IMG/VR virus record: IMGVR_UViG_2718218136_000001
Length of the DNA stretch: 64,000 nt
Source of the DNA: a virus
Taxonomy: Duplodnaviria > Heunggongvirae > Uroviricota > Caudoviricetes
Reading direction: 5' to 3' (one strand)
Part shown: positions 2,169 through 55,615 of the stretch, piece by piece
Layout of the letters: each line of letters opens with the position of its first letter
Numbering within the stretch: the first letter of the stretch is position 1
Program-made: the position numbers and the translations under genes
The notes under the pieces: generated by a model
The model's database searches: none
What the model saw: the letters and a program-made list of their open reading frames with translations, nothing else
What the model was told of the DNA's origin: nothing

Positions 2169-2185
2169 CCTGCTCTAATAAATTT
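2169..2185 (+). promoter_or_regulatory. C1 operator-like site upstream of the immI module
   Basis: cctgctctaataaattt resembles the asymmetric 17-bp C1 operator ATTGCTCTAATAAATTT. Confidence 0.45.
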
Positions 2186-2374
2186 GTATTTTTAAGTCGC
2201 GAATGCTATCTTTTCGCATCATATTGACCTTTTAATCGTTCAGGCTTATAGTTTCGCCGTCGTAGCAAATTCTGCGACCAGGTTTGACAGCCTGAATGAT
2301 TGTGCGGACAACCGCAGATTTCCGATATTGCGGTATTTTTGTGTCCGTTAAACCGCGTTACGCCCAAATTATGG

Positions 2375-2465
2375 TGGGGCGTGATGGGGAGGCTTCGGCC
2401 TGCTGGTTTCACAATCGCCAGTCTGTCAACCCTGTCACGTCCTGCCACCTGTTTGACAGCGGGTA
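2375..2465 (+). ncRNA. candidate c4-like antisense repressor RNA (boundaries approximate)
   Basis: Immediately upstream of icd; contains tcacaatc (2409-2416) and ggcct complementary to gattgtga and the RBS region (2482-2495) in the icd leader, matching the a'/b' versus a2/b2 logic of P1 c4. Confidence 0.35.
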
Positions 2466-2499
2466 GCAGGTTGTTAAACCTGATTGTGAGGCCGTAACT

Positions 2500-2721
2500 A
2501 TGGTTAATGCCAATCCTTGCGCACGCCCAGAATTCATCTGGCGTTTCTATTCCTGTAAAAAACACCACTATCACTTCGTTATCGCAGCAACTGAAGACGA
2601 AGCACGCTCTCAATTGCCTGATGGCCCCTGCATTTTTACTGCCCGTTTTTCAACTAACTCGCGCAATTCACTTAGTTACTGGAGCCTCCCCTTCTCTGCC
2701 GACGTTCAGGGGGGTTTATGA
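2500..2721 (+). CDS. icd: Icd-like cell-division interference protein
   Basis: 73-aa ORF whose stop overlaps the ant start (ATGA); position between the c4-like region and ant matches P1 immI. Confidence 0.75.
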   Translation: MVNANPCARPEFIWRFYSCKKHHYHFVIAATEDEARSQLPDGPCIFTARFSTNSRNSLSYWSLPFSADVQGGL

Positions 2722-3752
2722 AAACACCTCTCGTCACCCGTAATGAAATAGCCGAAGCGATCGCCCTGCATACTGCCTGTATGCCGACACGGGAGATCCC
2801 CGGCGCAATTGCTAACTATTTCATGATAACCAGACGTTTTTATACCCGAACAGATAAGGCTGTGATCAACAGGCTACTGATAGCCGAGATCAGGGATTAT
2901 TTGATTGAACAAGGACGTCTACGTTACGCAACAGTGGCAGCAGAAATGAGAAAGGAGGCACATAGAATGACCGGTAATAATTTAAATGTTGAAAAACCAG
3001 CACCTGTTGCTTCAGCTACGCCAGCACCAGCCCTGAATGTCATCCCCAACACCGGAGACACAATCGACAGCCAAACATTGTTGAAGATGGTCAATGAGGC
3101 ACGGAAATTATGTAGCGAAAAACCAGTTCGCAACAATGATTTCATTGCCAGAGTTAAGGATGAGCTTGAAGGAGAAACCTACGAAATTTTCGTAGGTCAA
3201 AAAAACGGCGCAGTAATAGATATTATAACCATGACCTACAAACAAGCCCTGCGAGTTGCCGCGCGCGAGTCAAAAGCGGTCCGCCGTTCGCTGATCGACA
3301 AACTGGAAGAATTGCAGCAGGCAAACTCCCCTACCCCATCGATCCCCCAAACATTACCAGAAGCTCTACGCCTGGCTGCCGAGTTGGCAGAACAGAAAAT
3401 GCAGTTGGAACAACAGCTGGTGGCCGCAGCCCCTAAAGTCGATTTTGCCGACCGGGTATCAGCGGCTAATGGAATCCTGATCGGGGACTTTGCAAAGGTC
3501 GTTGGACTTAAGCAAAACGCCCTTTTCTCATGGTTGCGCCAGAACGGCATTCTCATGGCTTTTGGTGCGCGCAAAAACGTACCGCGCCAGCAGTACATTA
3601 ACGCCGGGTATTTCACGGTGAAAGAAGTGGTGCTGGATGATGAAAATGGCTACCAGATACGGCTGACGCCCCAATTAACGGGTAAAGGCCAGCAGTGGTT
3701 AACTAGCAAGCTACTTGATGCTGGTTTGTTAAAACCAGTAGCAATAGGTTAA
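2718..3752 (+). CDS. ant: antirepressor Ant (Ant1/Ant2 in-frame pair expected)
   Basis: 344 aa; C-terminal region shares the KilA-C/antirepressor block (PQTLPEALRLAAELAEQK...GKGQQWL) with the KilA ORF and the second ant-like ORF in this window. Confidence 0.75.
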   Translation: MKTPLVTRNEIAEAIALHTACMPTREIPGAIANYFMITRRFYTRTDKAVINRLLIAEIRDYLIEQGRLRYATVAAEMRKEAHRMTGNNLNVEKPAPVASATPAPALNVIPNTGDTIDSQTLLKMVNEARKLCSEKPVRNNDFIARVKDELEGETYEIFVGQKNGAVIDIITMTYKQALRVAARESKAVRRSLIDKLEELQQANSPTPSIPQTLPEALRLAAELAEQKMQLEQQLVAAAPKVDFADRVSAANGILIGDFAKVVGLKQNALFSWLRQNGILMAFGARKNVPRQQYINAGYFTVKEVVLDDENGYQIRLTPQLTGKGQQWLTSKLLDAGLLKPVAIG

Positions 3753-5887: not shown

Positions 5888-6010
5888 TACAATCGTTGCG
5901 GGTGCTTGAGGCTATCTGCTTCAGGCATTACCCGAAAAGCAGATAGAAGAAAGCCCCAGATAACATTACGCGTCCTGCAAGACGCTTAACATTAATCTGA
6001 GGCCATATCT

Positions 6011-6217
6011 ATGCTTAGCATACGTAGATTAGCCTCTTACCGACCAAAAGGTCAAGGAGAAGCAGGCTATGAAGCAGCAAAAAGCGATGTTAATCGCTCT
6101 GATCGTCATCTGTTTAACCGTCATTGTGACGGCACTGGTAACGAGGAAAGACCTCTGCGAGGTACGAATCCGAACCGGCCAGACGGAGGTCACTGTCTTC
6201 ACAGCCTACGAATCTGA
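6011..6217 (+). CDS. mok-like overlapping reading frame of the hok-like locus
   Basis: 68-aa ORF starting upstream of and overlapping the hok-like ORF in another frame, as in hok/mok/sok loci. Confidence 0.3.
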   Translation: MLSIRRLASYRPKGQGEAGYEAAKSDVNRSDRHLFNRHCDGTGNEERPLRGTNPNRPDGGHCLHSLRI

Positions 6218-47005: not shown

Positions 47006-48199
47006 GTGACCTGGGACGATCACAAGAAGAATTTTGCTCGCCTGGCGCGAGATGGTGGTTACACCATCGCACAATATGCCGCCGAGTTTAATCTCAACCC
47101 AAACACCGCACGTCGTTATCTCCGTGCATTCAAAGAAGACACCAGAACAGCGGACAGCCGTAAGCCAAATAAGCCTGTCAGGAAACCACTAAAAAGCATG
47201 ATCATTGATCACGCTAATGATCAACGTGCAGGTGATCACATTGTGGCTGAAGTGGCTGAAAAACAAAGAGTTAATGCTGTTGTCAGTGCCGCAGTCGAGA
47301 ACGCTAAGCGCCAAAATAAGCGCATAAATGATCGTTCTGATGATCATGACGTGATCACCCGCGCCCACCGTACCTTACGTGATCGCCTGGAACGCGACAC
47401 CCTGGATGATGATGGTGAACGCTTTGAATTCGAAGCTGGCGATTACCTGATAGATAACGTTGAAGCGCGGAAGGCCGCGCGCGCTATGTTGCGTCGGTCC
47501 GGGGCCGATGTTCTGGAAACCACTCTTCTGGAAAAGTCTCTTTCTCATCTCCTTATGCTGGAGAACGCCAGGGATACGTGCATTCGCCTGGTGCAGGAAA
47601 TGCGCGATCAGCAAAAAGACGATGATGAAGGTACTCCGCCTGAATACCGTATCGCGAGCATGCTAAACAGCTGTTCCGCGCAGATAAGCAGCCTGATCAA
47701 CACCATTTACAGCATCCGGAATAACTATCGAAAAGAAAGCCGGGAGGCGGAAAAGCACGCTTTATCTATGGGGCAAGCTGGCATTGTTAAGCTGGCATAC
47801 GAACGAAAGCGTGAAAATAACTGGTCAGTGCTGGAAGCGGCTGAATTCATCGAGGCGCATGGAGGAAAAGTGCCGCCCCTGATGCTGGAGCAAATCAAAG
47901 CCGATCTGCGTGCTCCTAAGACCAATACCGATGATGAGGAAAATCAAACAGCATCTGGCGCTCCATCACTTGAAGATCTGGATAAAATCGCGCGAGAACG
48001 GGCCGCCAGCCGCCGCGCTGATGCCGCATTGTGGATTGAGCATCGTAGAGAAGAAATTGCCGATATCGTCGATACAGGTGGTTATGGTGATGTCGATGCG
48101 GAAGGCATATCAAACGAAGCATGGCTTGAACAGGATCTGGACGAAGACGAGGAGGAAGACGAAGAAGTTACCCGCAAACTGTACGGGGATGATGATTAA
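47006..48199 (+). CDS. pacA: terminase small subunit / pac-recognition protein PacA
   Basis: 397 aa, the length recalled for P1 PacA; contains the pac hexamer cluster; acidic C-terminus. Confidence 0.85.
47199..47356. other. pac packaging site: seven TGATCA/G hexamers with Dam GATC sites (four plus three)
   Basis: tgatca at 47199, 47206, 47218, 47233; tgatcg at 47329; tgatca at 47341 and 47351. Confidence 0.8.
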
Positions 48200-49683
48200 T
48201 GGCCAGAAGTTGCGTAACGGACCCACGTTGGCGCGAGCTTGTGGCGCTATATCGTTATGACTGGATTGCGGCCGCTGATGTGTTGTTTGGGAAGACACCA
48301 ACCTGGCAGCAGGATGAGATCATTGAGTCCACGCAGCAGGACGGCAGTTGGACAAGTGTGACCTCCGGCCATGGTACTGGTAAATCGGATATGACGAGTA
48401 TCATTGCAATACTTTTCATCATGTTTTTCCCCGGCGCTCGCGTCATTCTGGTCGCTAACAAAAGACAGCAAGTCCTTGATGGTATTTTCAAATACATAAA
48501 GAGCAATTGGGCTACTGCTGTTAGCAGATTCCCGTGGTTGTCGAAGTATTTCATTCTTACAGAAACGTCTTTTTTTGAGGTGACTGGCAAGGGTGTTTGG
48601 ACAATATTGATAAAGTCCTGTCGCCCCGGAAATGAGGAGGCGTTGGCTGGTGAACACGCCGATCATCTCTTGTATATCATCGACGAAGCGTCGGGGGTGA
48701 GTGATAAAGCATTCAGTGTGATAACAGGTGCGCTGACCGGTAAGGATAACCGTATTCTGCTTCTTTCCCAGCCTACGCGACCTTCAGGCTATTTCTACGA
48801 TTCACACCACAGACTAGCTATTCGCCCGGGAAATCCTGATGGATTGTTTACTGCGATAATACTGAATAGTGAAGAATCTCCGCTTGTAGATGCAAAATTT
48901 ATACGAGCAAAACTTGCGGAGTATGGCGGTCGTGATAACCCCATGTACATGATCAAAGTACGTGGTGAATTTCCCAAATCTCAAGATGGCTTTCTTCTTG
49001 GTCGTGATGAGGTTGAGCGGGCGACGCGGCGAAAGGTCAAGATTGCCAAAGGATGGGGCTGGGTTGCATGTGTTGACGTTGCTGGTGGCACAGGACGAGA
49101 TAAGTCCGTTATTAATATCATGATGGTGTCCGGCCAGCGAAATAAACGCCGTGTAATCAACTATCGTATGCTGGAATACACAGACGTTACAGAAACGCAG
49201 TTAGCCGCCAAGATTTTCGCAGAATGTAACCCAGAACGGTTCCCGAACATAACCATAGCTATTGATGGCGATGGCTTGGGGAAATCGACGGCTGATCTAA
49301 TGTACGAACGCTATGGCATTACCGTCCAGCGTATCCGCTGGGGTAAAAAGATGCACAGCCGTGAAGATAAAAGCCTTTATTTCGATATGCGCGCTTTCGC
49401 GAATATTCAGGCGGCAGAAGCTGTAAAATCAGGGCGTATGAGGCTTGATAAGGGGGCTGCGACTATAGAGGAAGCATCAAAGATACCGGTAGGGATAAAT
49501 TCCGCAGGTCAATGGAAGGTGATGTCAAAGGAAGATATGAAGAAAAAACTCAACCTGCACTCACCGGACCATTGGGATACATATTGTTTCGCTATGTTGG
49601 CGAACTATGTTCCCCAAGATGAAGTGCTTAGCGTCGAAGACGAAGCGCAGGTTGATGAAGCTCTGGCATGGCTTAACGAGTAA
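48199..49683 (+). CDS. pacB: terminase large subunit PacB
   Basis: 494 aa, the length recalled for P1 PacB; start overlaps the pacA stop. Confidence 0.85.
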
Positions 49684-49685
49684 AA

Positions 49686-49702
49686 ACTTGCTCTAATAAA
49701 TT
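49686..49702 (+). promoter_or_regulatory. C1 operator preceding the second icd/ant-like module
   Basis: acttgctctaataaatt directly after the pacB stop. Confidence 0.55.
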
Positions 49703-49879
49703 GTGTTTTTTGACTGCCGATGTTACATTGAACCTGACCTCTTGCGCCTTGAGGCATTTTCGGTTTATGCTTATCAGGCACCTCATTAAAACGGGTGCCG
49801 GGATTGAGACCCCGGATAATGTCAAAGGCGACACAGACGCCGAAAGCGTCTTTTTTTGTGTCATGCCATCGCACAGCCA

Positions 49880-50040
49880 TACGTAGCGTTTAGCTCCGAA
49901 ATCAATGGTAGTGCTGGCTGGGCTGCCGAAAGGCAGGCCGGTTCCCTTTGACGCCGGTAGTCTCAACCCAGTCAGTGCTACCGCCATTGAGATTGAGACC
50001 TCACGCGGTAGCTCCTTAACTTAGTCAAAGGAGGCTGCCA
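49880..50040 (+). ncRNA. candidate second c4-like antisense RNA region (very approximate)
   Basis: Upstream leader of the icd paralog; ccctttgac (49944-49952) is complementary in 8 of 9 positions to gtcaaagga (50024-50032) at the RBS. Confidence 0.25.
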
Positions 50041-50042
50041 TT

Positions 50043-50264
50043 ATGGCTACTGTCCCTACCCCAACTCATCCTGAATTCATCTGGCGCTTCTATTCCTGCC
50101 AGAAACGTCACTATCACTTCGTTATTGCACCGACAGAAGATGAGGCCCGTTCTCAGCTTCCTGACGCTCCCTGCATTTTCTCTGCCCGCTTTTCCACTGA
50201 TTCGCGCAACTCTCTCAGTTACTGGTGCCTCCCTGTTAACGCTTCTGCTCAGGAGGGACTATGA
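50043..50264 (+). CDS. Icd-like protein, second copy
   Basis: 73 aa, highly similar to the first copy (shared PEFIWRFYSC..HYHFVIA.TEDEARSQLPD.PCIF.ARFST.SRNSLSYW). Confidence 0.7.
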   Translation: MATVPTPTHPEFIWRFYSCQKRHYHFVIAPTEDEARSQLPDAPCIFSARFSTDSRNSLSYWCLPVNASAQEGL

Positions 50265-51376
50265 GAACGTCATTAGTCACCCGTGAAGAAATGATTGAGG
50301 CAATTGAACAGCACACATCCTGTATCAGTACCAGGGATATACCGGGCGTTATTGCCAACTACTTCATGATCACCAAACAACTTTACCGGAGAAAGGACAA
50401 GAACGCTGTTCACCGCATTCTGTTGTCTGATATCCGCGAATACCTGCTCGAACAGGGGCATCTGAATTACGCAACCGTCGCAGCCGAAACACGCAAGGAG
50501 GCACACAGAATGAAAGCAACTAACGTTAAATCAGAAAAAACTCATGCACCTTCAGTTCAGGAATCGGAGCTGGTGGTTGTTCAGAATCAGTCTGATGAAA
50601 TTCCCGTTCTGGAATGGCTGGGAGTGCGTGTAGTGACAACTAAGATCCTTGCTAAGGGGTATGGGACAGATGCGGATAACATCAAGAAGAACTTTTCCCG
50701 TAATGCTGAACGTTTTTGTGAAGGCAAGCATTTCTATAAAGTTATTGGAGATGATTTGAACAATTTGCGGGTGACTTTAAGTAACTCACAAAATCCTATC
50801 TCTCCTAAAGCCCGCTCACTCATCCTCTGGACGGAACGCGGCGCAGCCCGCCACGCTAAAATGATCGAAACCGATCAGGCATGGGCATTCTTTGAAAAAC
50901 TGGAAGACAGCTACTTCCGACAAAAAGAACAGCAACCGATCGCAATCCCCCAGACGCTTCCAGAAGCTCTGCGCCTTGCTGCCGAACTGGCTGAACAAAA
51001 GCAACTTCTGGAACAGAAAGCCCATCAGCTAAATCAGCAGCTGGTGGCCGCAGCCCCCAAAGTCGATTTTGCCGACCGGGTATCAGTGGCTAAGGGGATC
51101 CTGATTGGGAATTTTGCAAAGGTCGTTGGACTTAAACAAAATGCGCTGTTTGCCTGGTTACGGGAGAACGGCATTCTGATAGCGTCCGGCGGCCGTAAAA
51201 ATGTACCGTTCCAGCAGTACATAAACGCCGGATATTTCACAGTGAAAGAAGTGGTGCTGGATGATGAAGAGGGCTACCAGATACGGCTGACGCCCCAATT
51301 AACGGGGAAAGGCCAACAGTGGTTGACGCGTAAACTGCTCGATGCTGGCTTGTTAAAACCGGTGGCGGCTGAATAA
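50261..51376 (+). CDS. antirepressor-like protein, second copy, with a different central domain
   Basis: 371 aa; N- and C-terminal regions parallel Ant (LVTR.E..EAI..HT.C..TR.IPG.IANYFMIT; C-terminal PQTLPEALRLAAELAEQK...GKGQQWLT); unique central segment PVLEWLGVRVVTTKILAKGYG. Confidence 0.7.
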   Translation: MRTSLVTREEMIEAIEQHTSCISTRDIPGVIANYFMITKQLYRRKDKNAVHRILLSDIREYLLEQGHLNYATVAAETRKEAHRMKATNVKSEKTHAPSVQESELVVVQNQSDEIPVLEWLGVRVVTTKILAKGYGTDADNIKKNFSRNAERFCEGKHFYKVIGDDLNNLRVTLSNSQNPISPKARSLILWTERGAARHAKMIETDQAWAFFEKLEDSYFRQKEQQPIAIPQTLPEALRLAAELAEQKQLLEQKAHQLNQQLVAAAPKVDFADRVSVAKGILIGNFAKVVGLKQNALFAWLRENGILIASGGRKNVPFQQYINAGYFTVKEVVLDDEEGYQIRLTPQLTGKGQQWLTRKLLDAGLLKPVAAE

Positions 51377-51408
51377 TGGAAGAATGCCCGGTTGATGCCG
51401 GGCATAAT

Positions 51409-52260
51409 TTATTGCGCGCTTTCGGGGTTGTCGTTTACTGGCTGCCCCTTCTTGGTTTTACGGCTGCGCGTAACTGATGCGGCTGACTTAACCTTTTTCT
51501 CTTCGCGAGTGATGGCAATTTGTTTTTTTACATTTTCAATATCTGCCAGGCGATATATTTTTGCTTGCGGCCAGCGGTCGCAGATGATCGGTTCTATGGA
51601 GTCATAAAGGCTAAATTTTGCTTTTTCGAATTCACCGTTGATGATGATTCCATCACGGAGAGTTTCATCGCAGATAAACACGCCACACAGCGGTACATGG
51701 TAACTAACTGATTTACCATCATTGTAGTTAGGGCTACTGGAGATGTAGTGGACGCGCAGCATTGTTTCGCTAAAGCCGTGTACACGCATACGGAATTTTT
51801 CATCCTCCGGGTACTGCCTCATTAGCTCTTTTGTTGCTTCCAGGTTCTCTATGTATTTCGCACTGTGCTCATTGATCCCCGCGCTTTTTTGGATGCGAAT
51901 GTCCTTATCAATCAGATGAATAATGCGGCCAGCGGTCATGTTGACGCTGTTCACAGCTTCTGTCTGATAAGTTGTAACCTTGCGCACACCGCGAAGGATG
52001 TTAGGCACTGGATATAAAATAGTCTTTGGGATATTGAGGTCTGGGTACTGTTCCAGTTCCCGCGCCATTAAAGTCCATTTATCAATTTCAGCCTGAATGC
52101 TGTCCGTTTCTTTGAACGGTAGAACGACAACCGGGCGTACAGGACGACCGTCGCTGGCGGTATCAACGTGTTGGGCGCGTGCAACAGCTTTTTTTAGAAA
52201 GAGATCCCTGAAGCTGACGAACTCCTGGTACAGTTGTTCGCCGTAGACATAATTTATCAT
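51409..52260 (-). CDS. c1: C1 repressor of lysogeny
   Basis: 283 aa, the length recalled for P1 C1; downstream of coi on the same strand; its operator sequence recurs throughout the window. Confidence 0.8.
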   Translation of the reverse strand: MINYVYGEQLYQEFVSFRDLFLKKAVARAQHVDTASDGRPVRPVVVLPFKETDSIQAEIDKWTLMARELEQYPDLNIPKTILYPVPNILRGVRKVTTYQTEAVNSVNMTAGRIIHLIDKDIRIQKSAGINEHSAKYIENLEATKELMRQYPEDEKFRMRVHGFSETMLRVHYISSSPNYNDGKSVSYHVPLCGVFICDETLRDGIIINGEFEKAKFSLYDSIEPIICDRWPQAKIYRLADIENVKKQIAITREEKKVKSAASVTRSRKTKKGQPVNDNPESAQ

Positions 52261-54969: not shown

Positions 54970-55054
54970 GCAGTTTTTGTCAACTACGAAGACGTTGCCA
55001 TTACTTCACTCCTTGACATCATTGGCGGCCATTAGGCCGCCTTTTTTTTGCCAT

Positions 55055-55615
55055 ATGAAAACAATCGAACAAAAAATTGAACAGTGCCGCAAGTGGCAGA
55101 AGGCAGCCAGAGAACGAGCGATCGCTCGGCAACGGGAGAAGTTGGCTGATCCGGTCTGGCGAGAATCTCAATATCAGAAAATGCGGGATACTCTCGACCG
55201 CCGTATCGCTAAACAGAAAGAGCGCCCACCAGCCAGCAAAACGCGGAAAAGCGCGGTAAAAATAAAATCTCGTGGCTTGAAGGGGAGAACACCAACGGCG
55301 GAGGAACGGCGCATCGCCAATGCTCTTGGCGCTCTCCCCTGCATTGCCTGCTATATGCATGGAGTAATATCTAATGAGGTGTCTCTGCACCATATCGCCG
55401 GTCGTACCGCGCCGGGTTGTCATAAAAAGCAATTGCCACTTTGTAGATGGCACCACCAGCATGCAGCTCCGGCTGAAGTAAGAGAAAAATACCCATGACT
55501 GGTCCCTGTTCATGCCGATGGTGTGGTTGGAGGCAAGAAAGAATTCACCTTGCTGAACAAGTCAGAGATGGAGTTACTGGCTGACGCCTATGAAATGGCA
55601 AACATCATGCACTAA
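55055..55615 (+). pseudogene. ref: ref (HNH nuclease) interrupted by an in-frame TGA at codon 148
   Basis: ORF from MKTIEQKIEQ stops at tga 55496-55498; the same frame continues LVPVHADGVVGGKKEFTLLNKSEMELLADAYEMANIMH to taa at 55613-55615, totalling 186 codons, the length recalled for P1 Ref. Confidence 0.6.

Follow-up and report, generated by a model that had tools for sequence, protein, structure and literature searches.

Immunity in phage P1 is taught from P1 and P7, each of which carries a single antirepressor module, immI. In the satellite phage P4, the CI RNA acts by premature transcription termination and no icd-ant pair is known downstream. The Rfam profiles for C4 and isrK have been reported to detect relatives of P4 CI and seqA (PMC10111431). 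Another point of reference is the isrK-orf45-anrP locus of Gifsy-1, for which Hershko-Shalev et al. 2016 (PMC4825925) describe an isrK terminator that is partly read through, an RNA of ~80 nt that is processed from the read-through transcript, and a short IsrK that activates translation of the downstream antirepressor in trans. The present study concerns a 64,000-nucleotide stretch of IMG/VR record IMGVR_UViG_2718218136_000001 (the window), which is a P1-like phage-plasmid, and in particular a 1.72-kb cassette that is located between pacB and c1 and contains icd- and ant-like genes. The cassette region is 100% identical to plasmid pET6.1-IncY of E. coli O80:H26 EC-107 (NZ_CP043218.1). With a probability of roughly 0.8, the cassette is a second, functional immI-type immunity operon; this reading is built on sequence architecture and covariation and is extended by homology to P1/P7 immI and Gifsy-1 isrK.

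Regulatory anatomy of the pacB-c1 cassette

An initial annotation of the window, made without database searches, had described a leader with partial antisense complementarity to the ribosome binding site (RBS). An antisense element is present according to both RNA folding and Rfam; the word partial did not stand, as the element proved to be a complete C4-type RNA with a1/b1 and a2/b2 target sites (Table 1). The cassette C4 outscores the canonical c4 of the window in Rfam. With its 5' and 3' ends set by alignment to the annotated c4 misc_RNA of P1, the mature RNA is predicted to span approximately 49907-49985 and to consist of a 16-bp long stem followed by GCCA. Its two recognition elements, a' (7 nt) and b' (8 nt), have exact complements at both a1/b1 and a2/b2, and the order and spacing of the sites are the same as those annotated in P1.

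The a1 and b1 sites are located in an isrK-type leader that is followed by an intrinsic terminator, which is kept in all alleles. When the read-through leader is folded at minimum energy, a1/b1 are predicted to pair with a'/b' in cis (z = -5.3). Since the leader carries perfect copies of the C4 target sites and is predicted to pair with C4 in cis, it is proposed to serve as a competitor or decoy for C4. Directly over the C4 RNA gene, RefSeq/PGAP annotates a 39-aa 'ash family protein' (49905-50024, plus strand) that may be either a translated RNA gene or a counterpart of Gifsy-1 orf45. Two open reading frames (ORFs) that lie antisense to the leaders, at 49673-49987 and 2206-2613 on the minus strand, had no Pfam match and were treated as non-coding.

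The cassette begins with a site, CTTGCTCTAATAAATTG, that matches the 17-bp C1 operator consensus ATTGCTCTAATAAATTT at 15/17 positions, the mismatches being the two outermost bases. Within the window, 18 matches to the operator were found with at most three mismatches, compared to 0.29 expected by chance. The cassette site aligns with Op51 of P1 and with Op51 of the window's canonical module, and its core, TTGCTCTAAT(A/G)AATTG, is kept in the aligned pacB-c1 cassettes from IMG/VR with a single A-to-G change in one allele group. From these comparisons, the site is predicted to be bound by C1. As in the annotated P1 promoter, the operator overlaps the -35 hexamer of a putative upstream promoter. 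A second putative promoter aligns under the TTGACC/TATAGT pair of P1 and ends 6 nt ahead of the isrK match; transcription from it would start at approximately 49778, the 5' end of that match. The downstream promoter is nearly invariant between cassette alleles. Both promoters were placed by positional correspondence with promoters annotated in P1 and are best described as candidates.

Following the C4 gene, an icd-like gene is predicted whose product is 73% identical to the canonical Icd. The stop codon of this gene and the start codon of ant overlap in an ATGA at 50261-50264, which suggests that the two genes are translationally coupled. The Ant product shares its N-terminal ~85 aa and C-terminal ~150 aa with P1 Ant1 and the canonical Ant, and the C-terminal portion is near-identical to that of P1 Ant. 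From this shared sequence, the cassette Ant is predicted to bind C1. The center of the protein is an ORF6N domain, which Pfam did not find in the canonical Ant. Relative to P1, both the ATGA overlap and the internal Shine-Dalgarno (SD)-ATG of ant are kept.

The pacB-c1 interval of the window is 1725 bp in length (49684-51408) while the pacB and c1 stop codons of P1 are only 24 bp apart. When a query spanning the region was compared to P1, P7, SJ46 and phiW39, only the pacB and c1 parts were matched and the cassette was absent; with RCS47, JL22 and vB_EcoM-673R5, the match ran across the region. Thus, the arrangement proposed in the initial annotation is borne out: a 73-aa Icd-like ORF and a 371-aa antirepressor-like ORF with a different center stand between pacB and c1 behind an operator of their own, and P1, like P7, holds no such genes at this position. 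No flanking direct repeats were seen around the cassette by eye. Also by eye, the 24-bp spacer of P1 and the right end of the cassette have only an ATGCCGG heptamer in common, equidistant from c1, and this is not enough to tell insertion from deletion.

Two of the related phage records are of note for their state near c1. In vB_EcoM-673R5 (locus L003, 2239-4238), the cassette ant carries the annotation 'Roi' (257 aa) and c1 is broken up into several short ORFs, either from sequencing frameshifts or from real decay. In phi456 (L004, 3262-3863), only the last ~110 ant codons ('Ant2', Orf87) remain beside c1, and this remnant adjoins an InsB (IS1-like) gene, so that the cassette was apparently truncated by an insertion sequence.

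Table 1. Features of the pacB-c1 cassette, its flanking genes and the canonical immI module (window coordinates unless residues are given).
Feature	Coordinates	Strand	Remarks
pacB	48199-49683	+	gene left of cassette
C1 operator-like site, CTTGCTCTAATAAATTG	49687-49703	+	positional equivalent of P1 Oc4/Op51
Putative C1-controlled promoter	49701-49729	+	-35 TTGTGT (49701-06), 17-nt spacer, -10 TACATT (49724-29); equivalent to P1 P2c4/P51a
Putative operator-free promoter	49742-49771	+	-35 TTGCGC (49742-47), 18-nt spacer, -10 TATGCT (49766-71); equivalent to P1 P1c4/P51b
isrK-type leader RNA	49778-49856	+	Rfam RF01394, 60.2 bits (gathering score 50), full-length match
a1 (TTGAGAC)	49804-49810	+	in isrK leader; complement of a'
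b1 (GTCAAAGG)	49821-49828	+	in isrK leader; complement of b'
Intrinsic terminator	49835-49858	+	stem-loop 49835-49851 and T7 run (terminator scan); between leader sites and C4 gene
C4-type antisense RNA gene	49901-49988	+	Rfam RF01695, 75.4 bits (gathering score 45), model positions 1-87 of 87
C4 loop element b' (CCUUUGAC)	49945-49952	+	RNA fold
C4 single-stranded tail element a' (GUCUCAA)	49960-49966	+	RNA fold
a2 (TTGAGAC)	49993-49999	+	complement of a'
b2 (GTCAAAGG)	50024-50031	+	complement of b' loop; overlaps icd SD AAGGAGG (50028-50034)
icd-like gene, 73 aa	50043-50264	+	NCBIfam NF033153 'Icd-like', E 2.6e-13
ant gene, Ant1-like product of 371 aa	50261-51376	+	Pfam ANT/KilAC and ORF6N
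ORF6N domain of Ant	residues 117-201		Pfam E 3.9e-18
ANT/KilAC domain of Ant (PF03374)	residues 259-360		Pfam E 4.8e-31
Nested Ant2-like start, ATG at 50510, 288 aa	50495-50512	+	internal AAGGAGG (50495-50501)-N8-ATG at position of P1 ant2 start
G+C-rich hairpin, probable terminator between convergent ant and c1	51384-51405	.	terminator scan, 9-bp stem
c1	52260-51409	-	NCBIfam phage_rep_C1, E 1.4e-184; convergent with ant
Canonical immI module	2169-3752	+	C1 operator, leader, C4, icd, ant
Canonical Op51	2169-2185	+	
Canonical c4-a1b1 leader	2246-2298	+	
Canonical C4	2367-2452	+	Rfam 68.4 bits
Canonical icd	2500-2721	+	
Canonical ant	2718-3752	+	

Elsewhere in the window, a sok antitoxin RNA (5900-6074, 114.9 bits) indicates a hok/sok-type addiction locus. 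Three tRNA genes are present, and the RNA-gene coordinates listed along with sok are 5900-6074, 23093-23243 and 24687-24759. A ref-like gene (55055-55615, plus strand) contains an in-frame TGA at 55496-55498, which may be a nonsense mutation; the frame runs 38 codons past it to give 186 in all, the length of P1 Ref.

Covariation, specificity and distribution

The strongest evidence that the cassette is functional is the covariation of its RNA elements. Among 54 isrK-type cassettes, five allele classes were distinguished by their a/b specificities. The window's own allele combines a TTGAGAC with b GTCAAAGG; three further classes combine TTGGAAC with GTCAAAGG, TTGGAAC with GCAAAAGG and TTGAGAC with GCAAAAGG; and the last has TTGGCCT at a1, TTGGTCT at a2 and GTCTAAGG at b. 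In all five classes, a1, a' and a2 vary together, as do b1, b' and b2, and pairing is Watson-Crick or G.U throughout with 0 mismatches. The P1/P7-type (c4-a1b1-type) cassettes obtained in the same search make up 8 further classes, also with perfect pairing. A dead locus would not be expected to show compensatory changes at three RNA sites.

A total of 78 relatives were gathered from IMG/VR with the Ant protein, of which 47 have the order PacB, Icd, Ant, C1. Within these 47 loci, ant is intact in 43 (370-372 aa) and shortened in four. Relative to the window, dN/dS ranges from 0.02 to 0.19 for ant and from 0.02 to 0.11 for icd, values which indicate that the module is functional and not decaying. 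The initial annotation had raised the possibility that the second ant is a pseudogene; the ORF is intact and under purifying selection.

The canonical module has the specificity a = TTGACAG and b = GATTGTG(A), and by eye the two modules of the window differ at 2/7 positions in a and 6/8 in b. No cross-complementarity of 6 nt or more was found between the a'/b' elements of either C4 and the target sites of the other module. Since their a/b elements differ, the two modules should be orthogonal and free of cross-regulation, as judged from these short recognition elements. Each would then be regulated independently, and a two-locus heteroimmunity code should follow. For comparison, 2+2 nt distinguish P1 from P7 at the same a/b sites. 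The two phages are reportedly heteroimmune due to c4, a finding attributed to Citron and Schuster in 1990. The canonical immI of the window (2246-2490) is itself a hybrid of the two, with an a site that is P1-like and a b site, GATTGTG, that is P7-like; the change is consistent across the three copies of each site.

The ant-c1 junction was detected with at least 80% coverage of an 800-bp probe in 384/704 matching PLSDB records and likewise in 376/699 matching genomes from a search of 5,426 complete E. coli genomes. At megablast sensitivity, 259 PLSDB records covered the pacB-leader junction. Thus, of the natural P1-like records that match the ant/c1 probe, about half have ant beside c1. The initial annotation had implied that the module is rare, which these counts and its presence in RCS47 contradict.

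That ant can be found at this site is already on record, as are the parts and logic known from immI. Venturini et al. 2019 (PMC6906374) reported an ant insertion between pacB and c1 in pTZ20_1P and RCS47 and named only two short hypothetical ORFs and ant at the site. The RCS47 record annotates only ant in the cassette. A second c4-icd region has also been reported for the D6-like pYU39_89 (PMC6799933). Beyond passing mentions, the literature search found no paper on the RNAs, operator, target sites, allele series or function of this second module, nor one on how immI alleles vary in P1-like plasmids. New here are the full regulatory anatomy, the predicted orthogonality, the five-allele covariation series and the presence of cassettes at several P1-like sites.

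With respect to the last of these, other P1-like contigs have related cassettes at three or more further sites, one of them replacing ref. Related C4-icd-ant cassettes were located at the equivalent of window 55047-55607 (L021, L035 and L075), 27404/27462 (L080) and 56445/57861 (L052). One contig, IMGVR_UViG_2698536372_000019, has three cassettes (L060, L067 and L083). An isrK-type cassette was also seen at the canonical sim-kilA site (L063), and in L051 the 27.4-kb flank is joined to the ant-c1 flank in what looks like a recombination between two cassettes. The P1/P7-type cassettes at other sites (L035, L052, L059 and similar) have, ~360 nt ahead of icd, a double C1 operator that is palindromic (ATTGCTCTAATAAATTTGATTTATTAGAGCAAAT), compared to the single operator at pacB-c1.

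Proposed mechanism and alternative explanations

Since all of the sequence-level features of P1 immI are present, the P1 mechanism is the best model for the cassette. Transcription would proceed rightward from two promoters, the upstream one shut in the lysogen because the C1 operator overlaps it and the downstream one free of an operator. Most transcripts would end at the terminator past the isrK-type leader and yield a short RNA that displays a1/b1. Transcripts that read through would contain the C4-type RNA, which would then be excised; in P1, its 5' end is made by RNase P and similar processing is presumed here. By means of a' and b', C4 would pair with a2 and b2 of the mRNA, and since b2 covers the icd Shine-Dalgarno, this pairing would block translation of icd and, through the ATGA overlap, of ant. 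The a1/b1 sites would compete for a' and b' of C4, whether as part of the same precursor (in cis) or on the short leader RNA (in trans), and by this competition may set the threshold of the switch. Ant, in its long and short forms, would be made in the absence of C4 or when C4 is outnumbered, for instance upon entry into a cell whose resident C4 has another specificity, and would then most probably inactivate C1 as P1 Ant does. With an operon of this kind at each of two loci, it is reasonable to infer that C1 is under layered control, as the initial annotation had supposed.

Several observations speak against a second immI operon of this description. A scan of 49500-51600 for consensus promoters returned none in the leader, and the two promoters were therefore placed by alignment to those annotated in P1; by eye, both are weak matches to consensus (7/12). 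The a sites of the two window modules are still alike at 5/7 positions (by eye). Whole-sequence RNAduplex energies of each C4 with each leader were all between -35 and -51 kcal/mol and failed to separate cognate from non-cognate pairs; as this calculation was uninformative, the analysis relied instead on covariation and on exact complements of those elements known to be single-stranded. In addition, the ORF6N center is unlike that of P1 Ant, and the target of the cassette Ant could differ as a result.

An unlikely explanation that takes up this last point is that the RNA switch works but Ant acts on a different repressor or DNA site, for example of co-resident prophages or satellites, such that the cassette is an inter-element weapon. 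The swapped central domain of Ant fits this explanation, as does the position of isrK-C4 leaders ahead of Rha/Bro/Ant-type genes in many unrelated phages and, in Gifsy-1 (PMC4825925), the action of the antirepressor behind isrK in a lambdoid prophage. It accounts less readily for an Ant that has its N-terminal 85 aa and C-terminal ~150 aa, including the whole KilAC domain, in common with P1 Ant, for the conserved C1 operator within the cassette, or for a cassette that directly adjoins c1 in hundreds of plasmids.

Still less probable is a cassette that serves mainly in plasmid addiction or abortive infection, with Icd as the toxin, C4 as the antisense antidote and Ant in a secondary role. In its favor are the very strong conservation of the Icd-like protein, the annotation of P1 Icd as a cell-division inhibitor, the likeness to type I toxin-antitoxin systems of an antisense RNA that lies over a small toxic ORF, and the presence of hok/sok on the same low-copy plasmid. 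Against it, ant is equally conserved and appears to be translationally coupled to icd, and the cassette is wired to C1 through its predicted operator. Translation of P1 icd serves chiefly to permit ant expression, which also weighs against a primary toxin role. An inert leftover, a recent insertion private to this plasmid or an assembly artefact is very hard to credit. Its absence from the P1 and P7 references and the four shortened ant genes might be taken that way, but the same junctions occur in the PLSDB records, complete E. coli genomes and 47 IMG/VR contigs counted above, the ORFs are intact with dN/dS well below 1, and compensatory changes are found at three RNA sites. Readings of the locus as a pseudogene or artefact were rejected on its prevalence, intactness and dN/dS.

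A wider proposal may be put forward tentatively, with somewhat less than an even chance of being correct. The pacB-c1 cassette would be a second, independently evolving heteroimmunity locus whose a and b elements have been reshuffled to yield at least five specificities and, along with at least eight specificities of P1/P7-type cassettes at several sites and the cassettes at a minimum of three other sites, would form a combinatorial RNA 'immunity barcode' that decides which relatives induce or displace each other. The isrK leader would be a built-in decoy for tuning the switch, and the single-module state of P1 and P7 would be a reduced one and not the norm. Up to three related cassettes are present on some contigs, and in E. 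coli the P1-like plasmids are widespread vehicles of resistance genes. Should each module gate a C1 antirepressor independently, superinfection immunity, induction by relatives and plasmid displacement would be governed by a multi-locus RNA code that could be read from sequence alone and would help to predict the coexistence and spread of phage-plasmids. The cassettes, whose RNA specificities are diversifying, also offer a natural set of short antisense-target pairs with predicted orthogonality. As the parts and the logic are already known, the effect on the field is incremental.

Comparison with known systems

The order of parts in the cassette is that of P1/P7 immI: a C1 operator overlapping the upstream promoter, a second promoter, a1/b1, C4, a2/b2 on the icd RBS, the icd-ant overlap and the nested Ant1/Ant2. 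The two differ in location, with P1/P7 immI at sim-kilA (repL) and the cassette at pacB-c1, the canonical position being taken by the other module. The cassette leader, an isrK-type one that ends in a strong terminator, has no Rfam c4-a1b1 match, in contrast to the canonical leader. The cassette also has different a/b recognition sequences, an ORF6N center in Ant and a downstream promoter that is weaker by consensus.

Gifsy-1 was compared through its paper. Both loci have an isrK-family leader, a terminator that is partly read through, a processed RNA of ~80 nt and an antirepressor gene, in that order; for the cassette, read-through and processing are predictions from the DNA. A small ORF overlaps the processed RNA in Gifsy-1, and its counterpart in the cassette would be the 39-aa 'ash family' ORF. 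In contrast to Gifsy-1, the cassette has an Icd-like gene between the RNA and ant and is under a predicted P1 C1 operator. A term search of the paper (PMC4825925) found no discussion of phage P1 or icd. With respect to P4 immunity (CI RNA, seqA/seqB/seqC), the C4 stretch of the cassette has 75% DNA identity to the P4 'ash' region.

Among P1-like elements, RCS47 has 95.9% identity to the window from pacB through the cassette to c1. The leader, C4 and icd of D6 are 86% identical to window 49734-50191, a match that begins past the operator and upstream promoter of the window cassette. The D6 cassette is also of the isrK type; it is placed after ref, and its Ant differs, being 313 aa by annotated coordinates and Rha/Roi/KilA-like. 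Finally, isrK-C4 leaders are also positioned ahead of Rha/Bro/Ant-type genes in Stx phages, APSE and P4.

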